IMG/VR virus record: IMGVR_UViG_2565956711_000007
Reading direction: 5' to 3' (one strand)
DNA: 41,286 nt
From: a virus
Taxonomy: Duplodnaviria; Heunggongvirae; Uroviricota; Caudoviricetes
The position numbers and the translations under genes are program-made. Under the pieces are notes generated by a model. It had not been told where the DNA came from. It saw only the letters and a program-made list of their open reading frames with translations, and made no database searches. The stretch's first letter is position 1, and each line of letters opens with the position of its first letter. Shown here in pieces: positions 3,051 through 37,017 of this stretch.

Positions 3051-3329
3051 TCATTTTTCCTCTTTTGGTTTATGAATCTGAATGGTCATGCCGCTTTGAG
3101 TGGTGACTACAATGACAGAACCAGGCTGAAGACTGTTAAGATTGAATGCTTCGTAAAACGAATCCAAGGCCAGCGTTTTTTTATTCTTTCGGTTCCACCA
3201 ACGCCATCCCTTGCTACAGGCTACACTGACAATCCACTGCCCACTCCTGTAAGCCATATAAAACCAGATGAGCAAAACCTGAAGGAATGCTATCCAGTCA
3301 ATAATCGTATATTTCGCGAAGGAGTCCAT
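3051..3329 (-). CDS. Hypothetical membrane protein (N-terminal TM helix, beta-rich C-terminus)
   Basis: ATG at 3329 with AGGAGG 7 nt upstream; hydrophobic segment YTIIDWIAFLQVLLIWFYMAY; start overlaps upstream stop (TGATG). Confidence 0.5.
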   Translation of the reverse strand: MDSFAKYTIIDWIAFLQVLLIWFYMAYRSGQWIVSVACSKGWRWWNRKNKKTLALDSFYEAFNLNSLQPGSVIVVTTQSGMTIQIHKPKEEK

Positions 3330-4564
3330 CACTTCACCTCCTGCTGCGGTGCTGCTGGCATTTCACGCCAGTGCGTAACTGAGTGCGGATCCGGATATTC
3401 GGTGCCATCATCCCAGCGATTGCCATTCCACATTGCAGACCACATCTCACCGTCTTCATACATGACCATTACCGGAATTAACTTATCCGGCATTCGCTCA
3501 CTACAGCTTATCCAAGCATCCGGAGTTACCGGAGAATTGCCACCCTGAACAGTAGGCATATCCGGACCTTTGCGAATCGCCCTGGCAAGATCGATTGGGT
3601 CGTCGTACAACCAGTCACCTGTTTGCGGATGATTGGCTTCTGCCAATTGTGCAGCCCACTCCAGGCCGTCTTTGTGTCCTTGCAGATAGTCCAGCGGCAA
3701 CTCATCACGATTACTTACGGGTTCGATTTGTTCGGAATTACCGGACAACTGCATGGTACCTTCATTGGTGAGGGTACCATCTGCACCCTGAAGCATGGCG
3801 GCGCGGCAGGCATACTCAACGCCCTTAACTGCATCTGCGCAGTAGTTATAGCGATTGCATTCCACTAATTTCCGTTTGAGTTTTTCAATTGCCTGCGCGA
3901 CATCAGCCTGTATTACAGGAACTGGCGGAACGGCTGTTTGCTCTCGAACGTCATTAGTCGCTATCGGTTCTGCTGCCAACTGACTGGCATATTTGTTAAT
4001 GGTAACGATAAGCTCTTGCTCAGCCTCATCCAGACAATCACCGATACCTCGCCTGTCACCGTCAAAATCATCGAAATCGGCACGAATCTTGGCAACCTTC
4101 AGGATTGCGGACAACACCTCACTAGGAATTACCGGATAGTTGGTTGACGTTTCCGCGATTTCCCGAAAATTATTGGTTGACGAATTCTTGTTTTCCCGAA
4201 AGTTTCCGGACTGAAGCATGGCGGCGCGGCAGGCGTTCCAGCCTCTCACCTCTGCAATAGCGGCAACAGCATCAACCGTGTACATGCTAAGAGGATTAGG
4301 CATTGGTTTTTCTTCCGGTACTACTGGAACGGGGGGAGCGGCGTAGACCTCAATAATTCCATTATCAATAGGCCATTCTCCATCCTTGAGGTAGTCACTT
4401 GTGCCGTCAACTTGCTGTTCTGCAATGTGGAATGCACCTATTGGTTTTGCTTCGAGCGATGCCAGCGCAATCCGTGCCAGTTCCATTTGTTCACCACGGG
4501 TAAGCCCGTTTTCAAGCGGATTTTTAATGAACAATTCAATACGTTCTTTGGTAATAGTGCTCAT
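3329..4564 (-). CDS. Ea22-like accessory protein with internal duplication and DUF551-like C-terminus
   Basis: 411 aa; two copies of ACRAAMLQ motif encoded by a 24-bp perfect direct repeat (3788-3811 and 4211-4234); C-terminal W-rich region resembles phage DUF551. Confidence 0.55.
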   Translation of the reverse strand: MSTITKERIELFIKNPLENGLTRGEQMELARIALASLEAKPIGAFHIAEQQVDGTSDYLKDGEWPIDNGIIEVYAAPPVPVVPEEKPMPNPLSMYTVDAVAAIAEVRGWNACRAAMLQSGNFRENKNSSTNNFREIAETSTNYPVIPSEVLSAILKVAKIRADFDDFDGDRRGIGDCLDEAEQELIVTINKYASQLAAEPIATNDVREQTAVPPVPVIQADVAQAIEKLKRKLVECNRYNYCADAVKGVEYACRAAMLQGADGTLTNEGTMQLSGNSEQIEPVSNRDELPLDYLQGHKDGLEWAAQLAEANHPQTGDWLYDDPIDLARAIRKGPDMPTVQGGNSPVTPDAWISCSERMPDKLIPVMVMYEDGEMWSAMWNGNRWDDGTEYPDPHSVTHWREMPAAPQQEVK

Positions 4565-4567
4565 GGG

Positions 4568-4999
4568 TTAGTCCTCACCTTTCTGTTGCACTACCGGAAC
4601 CGATAAATCGACGCACCAGGAGATAACGCCGAATTGATCATCGTTCTGCGCTTCACCCCAAACGTAATATTTTGATCCTGGCCGACCCATTGCCGGGTCA
4701 AATACTTCTATGCCGCGTTCTGCCGTTAACGACATCAGAATCTGATGCAGGCCGCCTTTGATGTTCAGTGACGGAACGGTCAGGAAGTAAATAAACCCGT
4801 AAAGCAATTCGGCCTTGCGCTGGCTTCCGTAAAAATACGGGATTTTGTAATAATCCAGCGCGTCGTCGAGCCAGTCTGTTTTGTCGTGGAATTTCTGATG
4901 CCAGCGTTCCACTACCTCATCGACAGGTTGACCGGCAACCATTGCAACGCAGGTAGCCATGCAGGTGTTAAATGTTGGCTGCATTTGATGTTGAAGCAT
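4568..4999 (-). CDS. Putative papain-like (C39-type) cysteine peptidase domain protein
   Basis: 143 aa from ATG 4999; N-terminal Q....NTCMATCVAMV resembles the C39 peptidase Gln/Cys active-site motif; family assignment from motif only. Confidence 0.45.
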   Translation of the reverse strand: MLQHQMQPTFNTCMATCVAMVAGQPVDEVVERWHQKFHDKTDWLDDALDYYKIPYFYGSQRKAELLYGFIYFLTVPSLNIKGGLHQILMSLTAERGIEVFDPAMGRPGSKYYVWGEAQNDDQFGVISWCVDLSVPVVQQKGED

Positions 5000-5373
5000 C
5001 ACTCCCCCTTACCGATGCCAGCGGCGCTAAGCTTGGTATTCACATCACCTTCAAAAATAGGCAGTACACCAATTGCAGCGGCCCAGTTTTTAGCTAACTC
5101 AGGGTCAGATGTCTCGTCGGTGTAGTCTGATGCCCGCCACCCAATCAGTCGTTTCTGACCAGGAATGTCAGAGTTTCGCTTCTCCGTTGCTTGCTCTAGA
5201 GCATTAAGAAGTGTACGTATTTCATGCTGCTGAGTAGAGATGCTTGAGTCTTTGGCTTCCAGCTCATCAAGCAGCGCCAGCACATCCCGAGTGGGGACCA
5301 TAAAGTTCGGCATGAAGTTATCTTTTGCCTTTTCTGCTGTTAGGCGCAGCGCCTGTTTGTCGATGTTTCTCAT
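4999..5373 (-). CDS. Hypothetical protein
   Basis: 124 aa; AGGAGG 7 nt upstream of ATG 5373; stop overlaps next start. Confidence 0.5.
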   Translation of the reverse strand: MRNIDKQALRLTAEKAKDNFMPNFMVPTRDVLALLDELEAKDSSISTQQHEIRTLLNALEQATEKRNSDIPGQKRLIGWRASDYTDETSDPELAKNWAAAIGVLPIFEGDVNTKLSAAGIGKGE

Positions 5374-6107
5374 TGGGCGGCCTCCTGGCGGTCTATGCGT
5401 TCAATTTCAGCCAGAATAAGTGCGCCAGCTTTCACCAGGTCACGGCGTGGATTTGTCGGCTTCCACCATTCTGGTGTCCACGGCCAGCCAAATGGAATGC
5501 GGTTAAATGGATGGATGGCATTCAGTACGTAGCATGAGGATGCCCACAGTAACTGCGATTTGCTGTACTGGTCATCATGCTCAGGCGTCCATCCCTCAAC
5601 TGATTGATGGCGTTGACGCTCTGCAATTACTGACTGAACGGCATTGGATAGCGATTTCACACCCTGCGCACGCACTTCAGCCAGGAAAGCATCGGTGGCT
5701 GGGGTTTCTGGAATGGCGTCTGGAATAACCTCTGAGTAGACGCGTTCCATTGCCGACTCCCATCCGTAGTAACAAGCCGAATAGCCGTCGCGCTGGTAGC
5801 CGTGGTCTTCAACTCCACATCCCATGCCCTGGTCATGGTATTCAGGCTGATTGTCGGGATTAATGCAGTATTCAATGACCGACTTCATCCCCGCATTCTC
5901 CGCTGCCAGCGCAGTGCACTTGGCCTCAAGGTTATCAATCGTGATTCCAGCAGAACGACACTCCCGCAACGCCGTTTCCAGTTTTGATTCAAGTTCACCG
6001 AACTTACGGACAAGGTATTCAGCGTTTGTTTCGTTAACCTTTAAATCTCGTGGGATGCATTTACCTTTCAGAAAACCATCCATCTCAATTAGTGACATTT
6101 GTTTCAT
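5370..6107 (-). CDS. Hypothetical protein
   Basis: 245 aa ORF in the operon, ATGA-type overlap with upstream gene. Confidence 0.5.
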
Positions 6108-6286
6108 TTTTTCCCACTCCGAAACATCGCATTCAGATATTTGTTTTGATTCACTGACGGAAAAGCATTTCTCTTAAGCAATTCCTCTCTCGATGGCATT
6201 GGCTTTACGCGCTGGCGAATAATCATTTCTGCCGGAAGAATGCCGGGATTGTATGCAAGTCCTCTCATGGTAAATTCCTCAGTCAT
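6104..6286 (-). CDS. Hypothetical small protein (60 aa), start uncertain
   Basis: ATG 6286 overlaps stop of upstream ORF (ATGACTGA); no clear SD. Confidence 0.3.
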
Positions 6287-6572
6287 TACTGATAGCGCCA
6301 TAGCGTGAGCGGTAATTACGCAGGCGCGGGTCAATTTCAGGGAAGTGGGTATATGTGGCTTTGCGGAATGGTCGGATTGATGTCTGGTAAATTCGCTCGC
6401 GTTCTTCTTTCTCTGCAAGCCATATACAGTGACGAAATTCCTTTTCCTCTTTCGTTTCCTGCGGTAGCGACATTATCCGATCGTAGTTTTTTCTGAATTT
6501 ATCCAGCACCTCCGATACGGAATTGCCGGAACAGCGGCGCGCGTCGTCCGCACCATACAGAGGCGCTGGCAT
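6279..6572 (-). CDS. Hypothetical protein
   Basis: 97 aa; AGGAG 6 nt upstream of ATG 6572. Confidence 0.55.
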
Positions 6573-6585
6573 GATTTTCTCCTGA

Positions 6586-7065
6586 TTAAATTGCGTGAAT
6601 AGCGTGACGAGGGAAGGGGAGAGTTACTGGTTCCTCGTCTGGGTAGATAGGTTTGTTATGTTTGTGCCACTCGACATGACATGACTTGCAGAGCCACATC
6701 ACATCGGTTGGTTTGCTGTAGTCGCAGTGGTGCGCCTGTGGTTTACATTCTGATCCGCAGCACTCACATTGTGGTGGTCGGATTAGCTTACCGTCGCGCA
6801 AAAAATTACCCACAATGATGTGGGCTTTTCTTTTCCATGGGTTGCTCTGAATGAACCGCTTTTTGGCTGCGTTACACCGTTCTCTTCCGCGTTCCGATGA
6901 TTGATATTCTCTCCTTGCTGATACTCGATGTGGCAATCCAGCGCGTTCTTTGTCGTATTCAGCCAGGCAAGCCCGGCAAGCGGCAGTTAATCCATCTCTG
7001 GATGCTCTTCTGATTTGAAAGTCCCTTTCTTCCTTCTGTTGATGGCATCTTGAGCAGACTTTCAT
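6586..7065 (-). CDS. Putative HNH-type endonuclease / zinc-finger protein
   Basis: 159 aa; multiple CxxC pairs and HHCDY....WLCKSCHVEWH motif typical of HNH; AGGAG 6 nt upstream. Confidence 0.5.
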   Translation of the reverse strand: MKVCSRCHQQKEERDFQIRRASRDGLTAACRACLAEYDKERAGLPHRVSARREYQSSERGRERCNAAKKRFIQSNPWKRKAHIIVGNFLRDGKLIRPPQCECCGSECKPQAHHCDYSKPTDVMWLCKSCHVEWHKHNKPIYPDEEPVTLPFPRHAIHAI

Positions 7066-8435: not shown

Positions 8436-8514
8436 GAATATCTCCTTCGTTACCGATTAATTCTTTCATCTGACGAATGAATTCTTCGTCTGACCAGTTA
8501 TCTGTAAAACTCAT
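8356..8514 (-). CDS. Hypothetical small acidic protein (52 aa), translationally coupled to kil-like gene
   Basis: ATG 8514 overlaps kil-like stop (ATGA); MSFTDNWSDEEFIRQMKELIGNEGDIHVTCNHSEGEQVTEAHVHAKSSLVST. Confidence 0.3.
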   Translation of the reverse strand: MSFTDNWSDEEFIRQMKELIGNEGDIHVTCNHSEGEQVTEAHVHAKSSLVST

Positions 8515-8803: not shown

Positions 8804-9772
8804 TTAGTAGGTTATTTTTGTTGCGAATACTTCGCCTTTTACGATGGCTGTTATGATATTTTTAGCAACATCTTCTGATGCGCCAACCTTGATAAGGTCA
8901 GCAAGTATTTTGTTATTTACTTCTTTCCGGTGAGCTTTATCCTTTGCTCTACGCTCTTCTTCTTCCTTGATTCTTTTTTCTTCTGCTATTCTGGCTTGCT
9001 CTTTTGCTTCAGCCTCGCGCCGGATTCGTTCAGCCTCCTCCTGTGCTTTTCTGCGTTCTGCTTCAATTGCTGCCTGCTTTTCTCTTTCAGCTCGTTCTGC
9101 TGCCTCTTTTGCTTCGCGCTGTGCTCGTTGCTCGGCTTCAATGCGTTCACGCTCTGCACGTTCCGCTGCGGCCTTAGCTTCTGCTTCTCGCCTTGCTGCT
9201 GCTTCAATTTCGGCTTTTGCCTTTGCTTCGGCTTCAGCTCTGGCTTTCTCTTCAGCTTCTCTTTTTAAGCGTTCTTCATGCTCTCGCTTTTCCTGCTCCG
9301 CTTTGAGTCTTGCCTCTTCTCTTTGGCGGTCAAATTCGCGATCCATCAAAATCGCTATTTCATGGTCAGACTCAATTTGCTTTGCGAGAGCTTCAGCTGC
9401 TGACTTAGCTTCTTCTTCGGCTTTAATCCGTGCCTGTTCCTCCTCATAATCAGTAAGAGGCTGGCGCGCCTTGGCTTTCAGTTCATCAAGGCGATCACGC
9501 ACTGTCTTGCGGTTAGCATCAATTAGCTTTGGAATTTCCTTCAGTTCAGCAACAAGGTCTTTGCCAAGACCATCGAGATATGTTTTCGTCTGCGCAACTT
9601 TATACGCCAGAGAAGCGATCTCCTTTCTGCCCTTTGCCGTTGTGATATCAGGCACAAAGGACATAACTTCACGTTCAACCTTTTGGAGAATTTCTTCAAT
9701 CTGGTCGGCAGACTGAAATACAGTCATTGCATTTGCTTTTTCAATAACAACTAAATCTGTTACTTCACTCAT
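8804..9772 (-). CDS. Hypothetical protein with long E/R/K/A-rich charged helix (single-alpha-helix or coiled-coil like)
   Basis: 322 aa from ATG 9772 (GGAGG 4 nt upstream); about 150-residue low-complexity EAERAEREKQAA-type segment between structured N- and C-terminal parts. Confidence 0.65.
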   Translation of the reverse strand: MSEVTDLVVIEKANAMTVFQSADQIEEILQKVEREVMSFVPDITTAKGRKEIASLAYKVAQTKTYLDGLGKDLVAELKEIPKLIDANRKTVRDRLDELKAKARQPLTDYEEEQARIKAEEEAKSAAEALAKQIESDHEIAILMDREFDRQREEARLKAEQEKREHEERLKREAEEKARAEAEAKAKAEIEAAARREAEAKAAAERAERERIEAEQRAQREAKEAAERAEREKQAAIEAERRKAQEEAERIRREAEAKEQARIAEEKRIKEEEERRAKDKAHRKEVNNKILADLIKVGASEDVAKNIITAIVKGEVFATKITY

Positions 9773-9784
9773 ATATCCTCCATC

Positions 9785-9811
9785 AAAAAAAATTGCCCTC
9801 ACACTGGAGGG
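9785..9811 (-). terminator. Rho-independent terminator (tL1-like) on leftward operon
   Basis: Stem GCCCTC / GAGGGC, 6-nt loop, followed by 7-U run on minus strand; sits just upstream of the SD of the following gene. Confidence 0.65.
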
Positions 9812-9916
9812 CAAAGAAGATTTCCAATAATCAGAACAAGTCGGCTCCTGTTTAGTTACGAGCGACATTGCTCCGTGTATTCACTCGTTGGAATGAATAC
9901 ACGGTGCTTATTCATA

Positions 9917-10387
9917 CTAATAAAACACCCAATTTTCTGTTTCTTTGTTGTGTCCAAAGTTATATTCAATATCTGGTGTTGATGTATCAATATTCTTCAT
10001 CCCATCAACAAGAGTTGATACAACAGCCAAATCTTGTTTGATTCTCATCAAATGGTATTTCTTCCGGCGCAATAAACTTTCAATGGCAAGTTTCTTCGTC
10101 GGGAACGCAAAAGATCTTTCTGCATTTTTTGCTACTTTCTTAATTGCATATCTATTTCTCCTTTGTTTCCATTCCTGTAACCACTGATTTGGTGCTGGTT
10201 TAAAATTAACAATCCAATGCGCAGGAACCAACCATGCATAATGCTCTGTCTGATGAAAAGCTATATATTGAAGTGCGAATATTTTGATTCCATCTTCTTC
10301 AACTGTCGCTTGGAATCTCCAGAAAACAGGCATTCCATCATGTTCAGTTTCTGATTCAGGAAAAGGTACGCTCCATGATTTTGTCAT
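9917..10387 (-). CDS. Hypothetical protein (156 aa), AT-rich, Trp-rich
   Basis: Intact ORF immediately following the upstream stop; visibly lower GC than flanks. Confidence 0.55.
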   Translation of the reverse strand: MTKSWSVPFPESETEHDGMPVFWRFQATVEEDGIKIFALQYIAFHQTEHYAWLVPAHWIVNFKPAPNQWLQEWKQRRNRYAIKKVAKNAERSFAFPTKKLAIESLLRRKKYHLMRIKQDLAVVSTLVDGMKNIDTSTPDIEYNFGHNKETENWVFY

Positions 10388-11209: not shown

Positions 11210-11593
11210 TTACCTCGCCGTCAGTTGTTTTGATTTCCGGTAGCCTGCCGCGTAAATGGCTACGTTTGGAAGACATACACCAGTTTCTGGTTGCTTATGT
11301 CCAAACTCATTCGCGTACACAATGGCCGCTCGCTCCAGATTGCGTCTGTATTCTTTCTGTTGCCAGATCACGTCCTGTGCCATGAACTTAATTGGCTTAG
11401 CGTCTTCTATGCGCTCAGGCGTTTCGTGAGTACCTTTAGCCTGAATCTGCGCTCTGCTTAGAGTAGGGCGGTGTAATACTTCTGAACTTATTGCTTCTTC
11501 GCGGGCCAGTACGCCGTTAGCTAATGCCTTTGCCTTTAAACGCTCACGACGACGAGAACGTGAATTGCCTTTGAACTGAGTTCTGCGTGTCAT
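11210..11593 (-). CDS. N: Antitermination protein N (P22/phi21-like type)
   Basis: 127 aa; N-terminal arginine-rich motif SRSRRRERLKAKA; AGGAGG 5 nt upstream; preceded by P22-type nutL boxB. Confidence 0.8.
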   Translation of the reverse strand: MTRRTQFKGNSRSRRRERLKAKALANGVLAREEAISSEVLHRPTLSRAQIQAKGTHETPERIEDAKPIKFMAQDVIWQQKEYRRNLERAAIVYANEFGHKQPETGVCLPNVAIYAAGYRKSKQLTAR

Positions 11594-12513: not shown

Positions 12514-13221
12514 TTACCAACTATGAGACGACCAGAATACTCTGCCAATAATCCTTACGGTTTCATGAAATTCATCTCTATCCATTACTTCATCCGGGTA
12601 CTCTTCGCGATTTATTGATCTGATTATCACCGATGTAGGGGTGGCGATTAATGTTTTTACTCGTAACAAATCAGACTGGCAAATAGCGTAGGTTTTACCA
12701 TCTCTGATTGTGGTATCTTGCGTGTTAACACCAACAACATCGCCATCGTGAAGGGTTGGTTCCATGCTTTGCCCTACAACCCTAACTAGCTTGGCTGATC
12801 TTTCAGATACTCCCATCTTTTTCAGATAGTGCTTTCTGAAAACCAAAGAGAACTCCGATGATTCCTCTAGCTCGCAGCTACCGCTTCCAGCTGAAAGCGA
12901 AACGTTAAGAAGAGGCAACGCAACAAACTCGTCATCGTTTCTTTTAATGTCTTCCCATACCACAGCTTTTAAAGATGACTCACGGACATTGGATGGTTCT
13001 TCATGTGCACCATCCCTCATTTCACCAATACCAGAACTAAGCCATTCAGGACGCACTTTTAAAGCATTGGCTAATTCAACCATCTTGCGAGATCCGTTTG
13101 TTTTACCGGACGACATCTTCTGTATGGCTGGCTGAGATATTCCAACCATGTCAGCAAGCTGTGATTGTGATACCCCTGCTGAGCTCATGGCTGCATTTAG
13201 TCTTTCTGCGAATGTTTTCAT
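12514..13221 (-). CDS. cI: CI-type prophage repressor (HTH plus S24 LexA-like autopeptidase domain)
   Basis: 235 aa from ATG 13221 (likely leaderless); HTH QSQLADMVGISQPAIQKM; S24 motif GQSMEPTLHDGDVVGVN; not the lambda cI sequence. Confidence 0.88.
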   Translation of the reverse strand: MKTFAERLNAAMSSAGVSQSQLADMVGISQPAIQKMSSGKTNGSRKMVELANALKVRPEWLSSGIGEMRDGAHEEPSNVRESSLKAVVWEDIKRNDDEFVALPLLNVSLSAGSGSCELEESSEFSLVFRKHYLKKMGVSERSAKLVRVVGQSMEPTLHDGDVVGVNTQDTTIRDGKTYAICQSDLLRVKTLIATPTSVIIRSINREEYPDEVMDRDEFHETVRIIGRVFWSSHSW

Positions 13222-13311
13222 ACCCACAAATCTATAACTACGGTTATCCAAAGTAAAATAACAAAGGTTATTGCTATTTTTTATAACTTGAGTTATCTTT
13301 GGTTATAACTA
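13222..13311. promoter_or_regulatory. OR region: divergent pRM and pR with three operators
   Basis: ATAAC-N4-GTTAT at 13234-13247, 13258-13271, 13283-13296; pR -35 TTGCTA (13271-13276) and -10 TATCTT (13294-13299); pRM -10 TAGATT 7 nt before the cI ATG. Confidence 0.65.
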
Positions 13312-33757: not shown

Positions 33758-35062
33758 ATGGTTGTCGAACCTATTGATTATTCTGCGTCCACTGGTCGCG
33801 CACTGCTTCAAGGGCTTACTGCTGGCCGGGCAATTCAGGGGATGCGTCAAACTTCTCAGGAGATGGATGCGGCAGCACAGCAACGAGAGCGCCAGCAAGC
33901 CGCATATACTGCGTTGCAGAATGCCAGGCCGGAGGATTTACCAGCGCTGCGCATGCAGTATCCAGAGTTTGCAGATGTTATTCAGAAAGAAATCGGCATT
34001 CAGGATGCTGAACATGCAGCGTTCGTTAATAAGGCGCTCAATAACCTCTCGGTGGCCTATGCATCAGGTAACCCGCAGATGATGCAGCAAGCCATTCATT
34101 CCGGCGCCCCGGCATTAGCTTCGATGAATGTTCCAGCTGATGAAGCTTGGCAGCTCTATCAGAGCGATCCGCAGCAGTTCGGCTCCCTGTTGAAAGCGTC
34201 AATGTACGCAACGATGCCTATTGAGAAGCAGGTAGATGCGCAGCAGAAAGAAGCTGAACTTAAGGAGGACGCCCGCCAGGCTGACATGCAGAACGCCACC
34301 ACGCGACAGGGGCAGCAGCTCTCATATGGCGCTCAGATGGCTCGTCTGAATCACGATAAATACGTATACAGGCAGTCACAGGCGGCGCTTAAAAAATATG
34401 GCGACGTTCAGGACATGGACACCCTGGCGTTAAACTCTCAAATCGCCTCTACGGGAGTTGACCCTTTAACCGGCAAGCCAGCAACCGGCGCGCGAATGGG
34501 GCAGGCCAGAAAGTGGCTTGAGGGTAATAACGGCTATAACGAAGCGCTAATCACTGGCGAAAGGGGGATCGAGAAGATTGATTCCGTACTGGGTAAGCCA
34601 GAATTAGAAGGCATTGGCAGGTATGCGGGAAGGATGCCTGATGCAACCACCTCAGAAGAGGGCCTGTCGAACAGGAACGCCATTGAAGAGCTTAAGTCTG
34701 GCGCTTTCGTTCAGAACGTTCAGATGCTCAGAGGCTTGGGAGCACTGTCGAACGCAGAAGGCAGCAAGCTCGAAAACCTGATCGCCCGCCTCGATGTTAC
34801 ACAACCAGCTGACGTGGTGAAAAAGCAGCTTGGAGAAATTCGCAGCCAATATTCTGTACTGCAAAAGGTGGCAGGCCGTGAAGCTGAGTCCATGGGCTAC
34901 AGCTCGCAGGGTTACGATACCTATGTGTCAGAAAGGCAAGCGCAGAAGGATCAACCGCAGGCAGGCGCAGCAGGGCAGTCAACTCGTGAAGGCATGACAG
35001 CCACAAATCCAAAAACGGGGCAGCAAATCATTTATAGGAATGGGAAATGGCAACCGATGTAG
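33758..35062 (+). CDS. Ejection protein, gp20 position
   Basis: 434 aa from ATG 33758 (GAGGTG 5 nt upstream); by position. Confidence 0.65.
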   Translation: MVVEPIDYSASTGRALLQGLTAGRAIQGMRQTSQEMDAAAQQRERQQAAYTALQNARPEDLPALRMQYPEFADVIQKEIGIQDAEHAAFVNKALNNLSVAYASGNPQMMQQAIHSGAPALASMNVPADEAWQLYQSDPQQFGSLLKASMYATMPIEKQVDAQQKEAELKEDARQADMQNATTRQGQQLSYGAQMARLNHDKYVYRQSQAALKKYGDVQDMDTLALNSQIASTGVDPLTGKPATGARMGQARKWLEGNNGYNEALITGERGIEKIDSVLGKPELEGIGRYAGRMPDATTSEEGLSNRNAIEELKSGAFVQNVQMLRGLGALSNAEGSKLENLIARLDVTQPADVVKKQLGEIRSQYSVLQKVAGREAESMGYSSQGYDTYVSERQAQKDQPQAGAAGQSTREGMTATNPKTGQQIIYRNGKWQPM

Positions 35063-37017
35063 GATTACCTGAAGGTTTTGTACTGGATAGTCAGTCTGAC
35101 AATTCACAATTGCCAGAAGGTTTTGTGCTTGATTCGCAGCCATCTACTGATAATTCACTTGCATCAGGATATGCACAGCTTGCTACTCAGCAGAAGGAAG
35201 GTCTAGATCGCTCTGCTGAGCAAGGGGCTGGGTTAGGTGCTGCAATGCGCGATGCCGTTACTGGTGAAAGCCGGATGACACCAGAAATGGAGAGATTGCA
35301 AAATGTTGGTTCTGCTCCAGAGCTTAATAGCCTAAGCACCGACGCGCTGCGTGCTGGATGGGGTCAACTATTTGGCTCCGACGCTTCACAGGAGAAGATC
35401 CTACAAAGCATGGGCGGGAAAATCAGACAGGATGAGAAGGGTAATTCCATCGTCACTCTTCCTTCTGGCGAATATGCACTTAACAAGCCTGGCCTGTCAC
35501 CGCAGGATGTAACGTCATTCCTGGCAAACGCCCTTGCATTCACCCCAGCAGGCAGAGCAGGGTCTGTTGCAGGTGCAACGTTAAAGTCAGGTGCTACTGA
35601 TTTAGCCATACAGGGGGTTACACAGGCGGCAGGCGGTGAGGACATCAATCCAGCTCAAGCTGCAATTTCCGCTGGCCTTGGTGGGGTATTGAAAGGAGCT
35701 GAAAACACCGCAAGCGCTGTGTCCCGTTCGGCCATGGGTAAGATAGCACCTGAAAAGCAGGCGCAGATTGATTTTGCCAGGCAGAACAACCTGCCACTGA
35801 TGACAACAGATCTTGTGGAACCGGGAACAAATATTGGTAAGCAAGCACGAGCTATGGCTGAGCGAATCCCAATAGCCGGAACAGGTGGGATAAGAAATGC
35901 ACAGCAAAAGGCCAGGGAAGATTTAGTTAGAACATTTAGCGATAATGTTGGCGGAATATCTGACGCACAACTTTACCAATCAGCTACTCGTGGTCAGCAG
36001 CAATTTATTCAGGCTGCTGGCAAGAGGTACGACAGGATCATCAGTTTGATGGGGGATACTCCTGTTGACATCACTGGAACAGTGAAAGCAATTGATGATC
36101 AGATTTCCAAGTTAACTCGCCCAGGAGTATCGCAAGACCGCTCAGCTGTTTCTGTCCTTCAACAGTTTAGAAATGACATCACCAGCGGTCCAAATAACCT
36201 GCAATTAGCTAGAGAAAACCGCACAAACTTACGTAAGCGCTTTATGGCAGCACCTGACGAGGTCGATAGAGATACGCTGGAGAAAGCTGCGCAGTCTGTT
36301 TATAACGCATACACAACGGACATGAAAAAAGCGGTTGGCGCAAAACTAGGTGCGAAGGAAGCGCAAAACATGTCGCGTGTTGATCGTTCTTGGGCAAAGT
36401 TCAACGACATGATGAGCAATACACGTGTCCAAAAAGCTATTCAGAGTGGTAAAACAACGCCAGAAGATGTCACTAAACTAGTATTCAGCCAAAGCCCAGC
36501 GGAAAGGGCGCAACTTTATAGATTGCTTGATGACAAGGGGAGGCAGAATGCTAGGGCTGCAATTGTTCAAAGAGCCATGGATAAAGCTGTGAAACCTAAT
36601 GGGGAACTGAGCGTTGAGAATTTCATTAATGAAATGCATCGAAATAGGAAGCAGGCAGCGACTTTCTTTCGTGGTGAGCACGGAAAACAACTTGATGGGG
36701 TGATTAAATATCTTGACTCAACAAGGCAGGCGGCAACAGCAGCGGCTAGCCCTCTTACAGGACAAATGTTCGCTGGCCCAGCAGCCTTGGTGACAGCTCT
36801 AACCTCATCAATTAGCCCTCCAGTGGCAAAGGTAGCGGCAGTCGGCACTGCGATTGGGTTGGGTGGTAGAGCATATGAATCAAGAGCAATGAGAAATGCA
36901 TTGCTAAAACTTGCTAATACCCCAAAGGGAAGTACAGCCTATGATCGAGCTATCAGAAATGTATCTGAGAAACTAGCTCCAATAATGCAGGCCTCTGTTG
37001 AAAAGGGTCAGCAATGA
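35047..37017 (+). CDS. Ejection protein, gp16 position, with N-terminal duplicated LPEGFVLDSQ motif
   Basis: 656 aa; 30-nt direct repeat at 35065-35094 and 35110-35139. Confidence 0.7.
   Translation: MATDVGLPEGFVLDSQSDNSQLPEGFVLDSQPSTDNSLASGYAQLATQQKEGLDRSAEQGAGLGAAMRDAVTGESRMTPEMERLQNVGSAPELNSLSTDALRAGWGQLFGSDASQEKILQSMGGKIRQDEKGNSIVTLPSGEYALNKPGLSPQDVTSFLANALAFTPAGRAGSVAGATLKSGATDLAIQGVTQAAGGEDINPAQAAISAGLGGVLKGAENTASAVSRSAMGKIAPEKQAQIDFARQNNLPLMTTDLVEPGTNIGKQARAMAERIPIAGTGGIRNAQQKAREDLVRTFSDNVGGISDAQLYQSATRGQQQFIQAAGKRYDRIISLMGDTPVDITGTVKAIDDQISKLTRPGVSQDRSAVSVLQQFRNDITSGPNNLQLARENRTNLRKRFMAAPDEVDRDTLEKAAQSVYNAYTTDMKKAVGAKLGAKEAQNMSRVDRSWAKFNDMMSNTRVQKAIQSGKTTPEDVTKLVFSQSPAERAQLYRLLDDKGRQNARAAIVQRAMDKAVKPNGELSVENFINEMHRNRKQAATFFRGEHGKQLDGVIKYLDSTRQAATAAASPLTGQMFAGPAALVTALTSSISPPVAKVAAVGTAIGLGGRAYESRAMRNALLKLANTPKGSTAYDRAIRNVSEKLAPIMQASVEKGQQ

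Follow-up and report, generated by a model that had tools for sequence, protein, structure and literature searches.

The viral stretch IMGVR_UViG_2565956711_000007, whose 41,286 nucleotides were analysed as a whole and are called the window below, encodes on its minus strand (4568..4999) a 143-aa stand-alone C39-like cysteine peptidase of the phrog_4049 family. The product is predicted to be a soluble protein with a papain-like fold that is nearest to the C39 bacteriocin-processing peptidase domain. Its putative catalytic set (Gln7/Cys13/His85/Asp101) is complete and invariantly conserved, and a C39-like fold with a competent active site can be predicted with high confidence. Among unrelated phages of Gammaproteobacteria, its family travels as a cassette of one gene, without a conserved partner.

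Predicted fold and active site

The AlphaFold2 model built on a 66-sequence alignment reached a pLDDT (predicted local distance difference test) of 94.5 and a pTM (predicted template modelling score) of 0.89. In this model, Cys13 opens a helix (residues 13-22), His85 starts a strand (84-92) and Asp101 follows another strand (96-100), and from these positions the three residues adopt a papain-fold arrangement. The structural matches, each given here with an unlabelled figure, comprised the ComA peptidase domain (9.7), PCAT1 (9.5), LahT150 (9.4), PeiR (9.0), the PCAT1 peptidase domain solved by nuclear magnetic resonance (8.9), the putative C39-like peptidase 3erv (8.9) and StbD-CT, a toxin of contact-dependent inhibition (CDI; 8ssm, 8.1), followed by Staphopains, AvrPphB, Josephins, UFSPs and viral papain-like proteases (5-8). 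In parallel, a Foldseek search of BFVD matched a Bacillus phage 'Peptidase C39 domain-containing protein' at E 8e-5. The protein thus has the papain-like fold of a C39 peptidase domain, as far as the model tells.

The predicted active site can be placed codon by codon on the minus strand. Gln7 (CAG, 4979..4981) is the predicted oxyanion-hole residue, Cys13 (TGC, 4961..4963) the predicted nucleophile, His85 (CAT, 4745..4747) the predicted catalytic base and Asp101 (GAC, 4697..4699), which belongs to a D-P motif, the predicted third member of the triad. The translation opens MLQHQMQPTFNTCMATCVAMVAGQ, and the N-terminus reads MLQHQMQPTFNTCMATCVAMV, as had been described from the letters alone: a Gln is followed by NTCMATCVAMV, and the codons, read directly, place Gln7 six residues ahead of Cys13. 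Conservation was followed in two sets. In the first one, the 66-sequence alignment with members at 25-90% identity, Q7, C13, V75, S77, L78, N79, H85, D101 and P102 are invariant. The second one comprises 221 near-full-length members aligned with hmmalign, among which 212 cover the N-terminus; Q7 and C13 are kept in 212/212 of the latter and H85, D101 and P102 in 221/221, while C17, A19, M20, H34, S77, N79 and Y112 are more than 90% conserved. A family-specific V-P-S-L-N motif (residues 75-79) precedes His85.

A bridge in sequence leads to the transporter CvaB, whose N-terminal domain was used in a form 100% identical to annotated cvaB genes on plasmids. An hhalign comparison of this domain with the family profile gave a probability of 82% (E 1e-5) and paired C13 with C32, H85 with H105 and D101 with D121, and Q7 and CvaB Q26 each stand at Cys minus 6. 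The oxyanion Gln and the catalytic Cys, His and Asp of the phage protein therefore come in C39 order and spacing (Q-x5-C, C-x71-H, H-x15-D), the equivalent residues being Q26/C32/H105/D121 in CvaB and Q177/C183/H258/D275 in StbD-CT. The catalytic Cys is kept, in contrast to the Cys loss that is typical of the CLD of HlyB-type transporters.

The sequence-only reading of this gene had proposed a papain-like C39-type peptidase domain because of a Gln/Cys spacing like that of C39 peptidases, and this spacing is indeed the same in CvaB and StbD-CT. It had called for a structure prediction in order to locate a Cys/His dyad, which is provided by C13 and H85 together with D101, and the proposal was to be given up if no catalytic His stood in a compatible position or if no fold similarity was found. 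His85 is present and invariant, C39 peptidase domains are the nearest fold, and the proposal stands, supported by the fold, the invariant residues and the CvaB profile match.

Gene boundaries and prophage setting

The 4568-4999 open reading frame (ORF) is a real gene, far beyond chance, and its GC content resembles that of its neighbours. The start ATG lies at 4999-4997 and the stop TAA at 4570-4568. An in-frame GTG is found at 5002, one codon before the ATG. The ATG rather than this GTG is likely the start of the peptidase, because its A is at the same time part of the TGA that ends the upstream gene, with GGGGAG just before. This junction (4997..5012, minus strand), in which a Shine-Dalgarno-like GGGGAG precedes the overlapping stop and start codons, reads GGGGAGTGATG and is of the translational-coupling type. 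At the other end, the downstream gene starts 3 nucleotides past the peptidase stop (window 4562-4570). The peptidase gene is translationally coupled to its neighbours; no promoter-like site was found directly upstream of it on the minus strand, the nearest upstream one being at 8508.

The window is a P22-like prophage. It contains a tyrosine integrase (1419-2489), an N antiterminator (11210-11593) and a CI/S24 repressor (12514-13251), all on the minus strand, as well as replication O and DnaC-like genes on the plus strand, a terminase, a P22 portal, a P22 coat and a tailspike head-binding domain. The peptidase gene sits within an unbroken minus-strand run of the leftward early operon, which holds Rad52-like recombinase, SSB, Abc2 (anti-RecBCD), DUF2737, Ead/Ea22-like, DUF551 and DUF4752 proteins. 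More precisely, it is placed between int/xis and the abc2/ssb/rad52-like genes of this N-antiterminated early-left operon, a position from which it would be made early in lytic growth and repressed in the lysogen. The sequence-only reading, too, had placed the gene in an accessory region, and Ead/Ea22-like, DUF551 and Abc2 genes lie around it.

Distribution of the family

The peptidase belongs to phrog_4049, a PHROGs family of unknown function to which no role is assigned in that database, on the basis of a full-length match to its hidden Markov model (E 3.1e-52; residues 1-141 of the 144-residue GTG-start translation against profile positions 1-144 of 145). When 1.84 billion representatives were searched with a profile, 716 relatives were found at E<=1e-3, 359 of them at E<=1e-10, these relatives being clusters at 50% identity. 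Nearly all of them are 130-190 aa long, with a median of 147 aa. Among the few longer members, which include P0162 and P0065 from metagenomes, only two kinds of addition were seen: C-terminal tails that resemble zinc ribbons and have several CxxC pairs, and N-terminal extensions of about 100 aa without annotation. Neither kind gave a clear functional hint.

The identical protein is present in 2533 assembly blocks. Among complete Escherichia coli genomes, 9/5426 carry the peptidase, labelled hypothetical by PGAP, and a scan of genome contigs gave two Serratia loci only. Megablast of the gene against the phage collection gave no match, and it was by tblastn that homologues with 25-50% identity were found in 193 GenBank phage genomes. 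Carriers include Kuttervirus and Agtrevirus (Ackermannviridae), Vequintavirinae, Seuratvirus, Nonagvirus, VP2-like Vibrio cholerae podophages and Pseudomonas Samunavirus, as well as Erwinia, Providencia, Shewanella, Aeromonas and Brenneria phages; their named hosts are Gammaproteobacteria without exception. In Seuratvirus, VP2-like, Samunavirus and Vequintavirinae phages, the homologues lie among early genes. A few GenBank records name them 'peptidase C39 family protein' or 'ABC-type bacteriocin transporter peptidase domain', but most of them read 'hypothetical protein'. A full-text literature search found no study of the phrog_4049-type phage family. The phrog_4049 and RefSeq 'hypothetical protein' entries could be renamed 'C39-like cysteine peptidase, stand-alone'.

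A single-gene cassette

ORFs were called in 89 loci with a homologue (the window, GenBank phages, IMG/VR contigs and assemblies), the peptidases were grouped into 17 lineages at 60% identity and all neighbours were clustered. Once antisense shadow ORFs and genes of the lambdoid backbone (NinB, for example) are set aside, no neighbour family that could represent a conserved partner or substrate gene was found in more than three lineages. Neither the window nor the 89 related loci contain a transporter, and a search across the window for an ORF of the Gly-Gly-leader type found none. The earlier remark that no obvious substrate gene is nearby is therefore confirmed, and extended to the lineages.

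The identical protein occurs in two operons of lambdoid prophages, namely the ninR region (five loci) and the early-left operon (L007 and the window). The window and five of six further lambdoid loci have identical junctions: the protein encoded upstream ends in ...AAGIGKGE*, the TGA of its gene overlaps the ATG of the peptidase, and another gene begins 3 nucleotides past the stop. Apart from this, the flanking genes are not alike. L007, the remaining locus, has no called gene upstream. In L004-L009, the junction sites lie around 8001 and 8436. This pattern looks like cassette exchange at gene boundaries, and it is from the constant junctions, the differing flanks and the two operons that single-gene behaviour is deduced. 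A fixed module of the peptidase with Ead/Ea22 and DUF551 proteins was considered and rejected, as nothing is common but the junctions and the final 8 residues of the protein encoded upstream. Other prophages with the identical protein carry Gad1, Lar and GamL. In one of them, an E. coli prophage, the early-left operon that holds the peptidase also encodes a homologue of Gad1 (anti-Gabija, PF25705) and the restriction-alleviation protein Lar (L007:2501-3475).

These observations bear on the idea that the enzyme processes a phage-encoded protein, be it a Gly-Gly-leader peptide, a virion protein or a replication protein with its gene at another place in the genome. Maturation of leader peptides is typical of classical C39 domains, the closest sequence kin of the family, and a 656-aa ORF of the window (35047-37017) gave one weak internal Gly-Ala match with a leader-like hydrophobic pattern. 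However, the window has no small ORF of the leader type, no gene family travels with the peptidase across the 17 lineages, and lambdoid prophages that differ widely in gene content carry the identical protein, in two operons. Moreover, the peptidase is present in only a minority of otherwise near-identical phages, so that no essential phage protein can depend on it. Processing of a phage protein is accordingly very unlikely.

Possible function in the infected cell

Since no phage-encoded substrate travels with the peptidase, a host protein is its most likely substrate. The protein is stand-alone, without ABC transporter or delivery domain, and also without signal peptide, given that the catalytic motif begins at residue 7; it would act in trans in the cytoplasm of the infected cell. 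His85/Asp101 would activate Cys13 for an attack on a peptide bond between small residues, with Gln7 stabilizing the oxyanion, and the scissile bond may be a Gly-Gly-type site by analogy with every characterised C39 enzyme. Cleavage would inactivate a host protein that limits phage growth, as part of accessory counter-defence or host takeover. Such a role fits the sporadic distribution of the family and the company of Abc2, Gad1, Lar and GamL. Taken as a whole, the statement that the protein is an active cysteine endopeptidase or isopeptidase, working in the cytoplasm of the infected cell on a host protein for counter-defence or host takeover, is given an even chance. We propose more tentatively that it would be the first phage stand-alone C39 protease used as an intracellular weapon, whether against a host immune component (or ubiquitin-like/cGAS-type conjugates) or against the Gly-Gly of GyrB/ParE.

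There is precedent for free C39 domains that cleave cytoplasmic host proteins: Cpe1, delivered through type VI secretion (T6SS; PMC12136450), and StbD-CT, from CDI (bioRxiv 10.64898/2026.05.07.723447), both cut the HAGGK motif in the cytoplasm, at Gly101|Gly102 of GyrB and Gly97|Gly98 of ParE. Phage homologues are discussed neither in PMC12136450 nor in bioRxiv 10.64898/2026.05.07.723447. If the phage enzyme likewise cut this ATP-lid motif of GyrB/ParE, host supercoiling and chromosome segregation would be halted early. The HAGGK target is universal in bacteria and would suit the wide host range of the family, and early gyrase inhibitors, namely Igy and Gip, are known from phages, one of them a prophage (PMC10886550).

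The position of the gene in Ackermannviridae could speak for the same target. The homologues of Kuttervirus Maynard and Agtrevirus Gloob are placed between the genes for the large and medium subunits of the phage's own topoisomerase II, with which they overlap (L001:1071-4757 in Salmonella phage Maynard, L096:574-4268 in Shigella phage Gloob), and the large subunit of Maynard reads LYAGSNF at the cleavage site versus LHAGGKF. Nevertheless, motifs of the T4/eukaryote type generally read AGS and not AGG, with or without the peptidase, which counts against this explanation. The functional link drawn from the position is likewise weakened: the site looks like an insertion hotspot, with the peptidase, at overlapping start and stop codons, in only about 39 of about 280 genomes that have this topoisomerase, and at least one other genome has a GIY-YIG homing endonuclease at the same junction. 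The latter was seen in Salmonella phage KE28, between the large- and medium-subunit genes of the topoisomerase.

Most carriers (lambdoid, Seuratvirus, VP2-like) encode no topoisomerase. Furthermore, replication of lambdoid phages depends on host gyrase, so that destruction of GyrB would harm the phage itself. The family profile barely aligns with the toxin domain of Cpe1 (taken from E. coli ATCC 11775, L099:1650-3089), with an hhalign probability of 3.8%; a close kinship to this toxin was rejected, as only the Q...C motif aligns. All in all, GyrB/ParE are unlikely targets.

Another target class would be the ubiquitin-like or cGAS-type conjugates of bacterial immunity (Bil/Bub, and Cap2 of the type II cyclic-oligonucleotide-based antiphage signalling system, CBASS), from which a deconjugating isopeptidase would remove or clip the C-terminal Gly. 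These substrates end in Gly-Gly-type tails. Type II CBASS is common in the hosts of the carrier phages (E. coli, V. cholerae, Pseudomonas aeruginosa, Salmonella and Klebsiella), which counts in favour of such an enzyme, and the peptidase gene has the sporadic, accessory and early-gene distribution that is expected of anti-defence genes. However, no comparable phage deconjugase turned up in the literature searched, and we regard deconjugation as unlikely. A paper on phage proteases and CBASS, followed as a lead, deals with prohead proteases and not with this family.

Several points weigh against a C39-like peptidase with a counter-defence role. The Foldseek search against the Protein Data Bank (PDB) was weak (best E 9e-3, template modelling scores of about 0.45-0.55), and the family profile run against PDB sequences reached no true PDB chain; an arabinanase from that search was dismissed as a chance match. 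PADLOC and PDB-sequence searches with the query gave no match either. The query reaches no Pfam or NCBIfam model, and PF03412 in particular was not matched even at E<=10. The Pfam check that had been suggested for this gene was thus negative for the query itself but positive for some of its kin, since 11/66 diverse relatives match PF03412 at E<0.1 and two of them are at or above its 22-bit gathering cutoff (P0105 with 27.9 bits and P0115 with 22.1 bits). Gly-Gly specificity would be an extrapolation from the fold. Enzymatic activities, substrates and phenotypes have been described for none of the family members, and the counter-defence role is drawn solely from gene context and distribution, which would fit any accessory early gene. 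Finally, a Cys-His-Asp triad is common to papain folds that carry out acyl transfer, deamidation or transglutamination.

This last point leads to a papain-fold enzyme with non-proteolytic or cell-wall chemistry, such as an acyltransferase, a deamidase, a transglutaminase or a peptidoglycan endoisopeptidase. The His/Asp region of one member gave a weak, non-significant match to arylamine N-acetyltransferase (E 0.32). Yet the invariant Gln at Cys minus 6 is a signature of papain/C39 peptidases, and the best structural and profile matches are true peptidases. As to the cell wall, signal peptide and cell-wall-binding domain are absent, and the lysis cassette (about 19.9-21.1 kb) is a long way from the early operon to which the gene belongs. 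Such chemistry is therefore highly improbable.

Coming back to proteolysis of a host protein, C39 peptidases are the textbook maturases of leader peptides and are tied to ABC exporters; that free C39 domains can cleave GyrB/ParE as cytoplasmic toxins was not demonstrated until 2025-2026. In phages, minimal C39-like domains form a large family, with intact predicted active sites, in early accessory regions and without transporter or substrate gene. If a host protein is cleaved, this would be a rare phage use of site-specific proteolysis for counter-defence or host shut-off, and a small, well-folded protease of probably narrow specificity would be gained. Targeted proteolysis by a minimal papain-fold enzyme would then join the repertoire of phage counter-defence and host takeover.

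Relation to known C39 enzymes

The C39 domains of ABC transporters (PCAT/AMS: ComA, CvaB, PCAT1, LahT; PF03412, MEROPS C39) have the same size, about 140 aa, and the same order and spacing of Gln, Cys, His and Asp as the phage peptidase, with which they share the signatures Q-x5-C-x3-C-x-A-M and H-x15-D-P. Classical C39 domains are part of an ABC transporter or encoded with one and act on the double-glycine leader of a co-encoded peptide, whereas the phage peptidase has neither such a transporter nor such a gene and, unlike them, is encoded by phages in early operons. It also has features of its own, which are the V-P-S-L-N motif before the catalytic His and the conserved His34 and Tyr112. The query is below the Pfam gathering threshold that some members pass. 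Because it scores nothing on Pfam C39 and comes without ABC transporter and without leader substrate, 'C39-like' is the proper wording and not 'C39 family member'.

Cpe1/TsaP (T6SS) and StbD-CT (CDI) are free cytoplasmic C39-fold enzymes that act on host proteins, and their Q-x5-C is also found in the phage peptidase. Nevertheless, the kinship of the phage family to the Cpe1 toxin domain is weaker than that to C39. The C39 toxins are fused to PAAR, Rhs, VgrG or CdiA for delivery and have an adjacent immunity gene; the phage peptidase has no domain for entry into the cytoplasm and no such gene, its neighbours being Ead/Ea22-like and DUF551 genes that vary by locus. Papain-fold proteases specific for ubiquitin-like proteins (Josephin, UFSP, bacterial JOS clippases) are structurally less similar than C39 and have extra substrate-binding elements, and no sequence similarity between them and the phage peptidase was detected. 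The phage peptidase is thus unlike classical C39 in architecture and context, and unlike the C39 toxins in sequence and delivery domain.

Neighbouring genes of the early-left operon

Directly downstream of the peptidase, a 411-aa protein (3329-4564, minus strand) has a C-terminal DUF551 domain and an internal duplication (…GWNACRAAMLQSGN… and …EYACRAAMLQGADG…). Its N-terminus (MSTITKERIELF…) is common to differently built DUF551 or Ead-like proteins of other prophages, which marks it as a mosaic.

The Abc2 gene (6279-6572, minus strand) overlaps a mechanically called ORF with a TTG start (6104-6418). As the DUF2737 match in the latter spans residues 51-102 only, its start is probably internal and the overlap with Abc2 smaller. 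Further upstream, a 159-aa cysteine-rich protein (6586-7065, minus strand) has several CxxC pairs and a C-terminal CKSCH...H motif, without Pfam or NCBIfam match; an 'HNH endonuclease' is among the features of E. coli prophage regions related to this area.

Two further genes on the minus strand, encoding proteins of 354 aa (8804-9868) and 156 aa (9917-10387), lie in the early-left operon between the recombination genes and N. Neither protein has a Pfam match, and the 354-aa one has no NCBIfam match either. The region of these two accessory genes is one where counter-defence genes are common.
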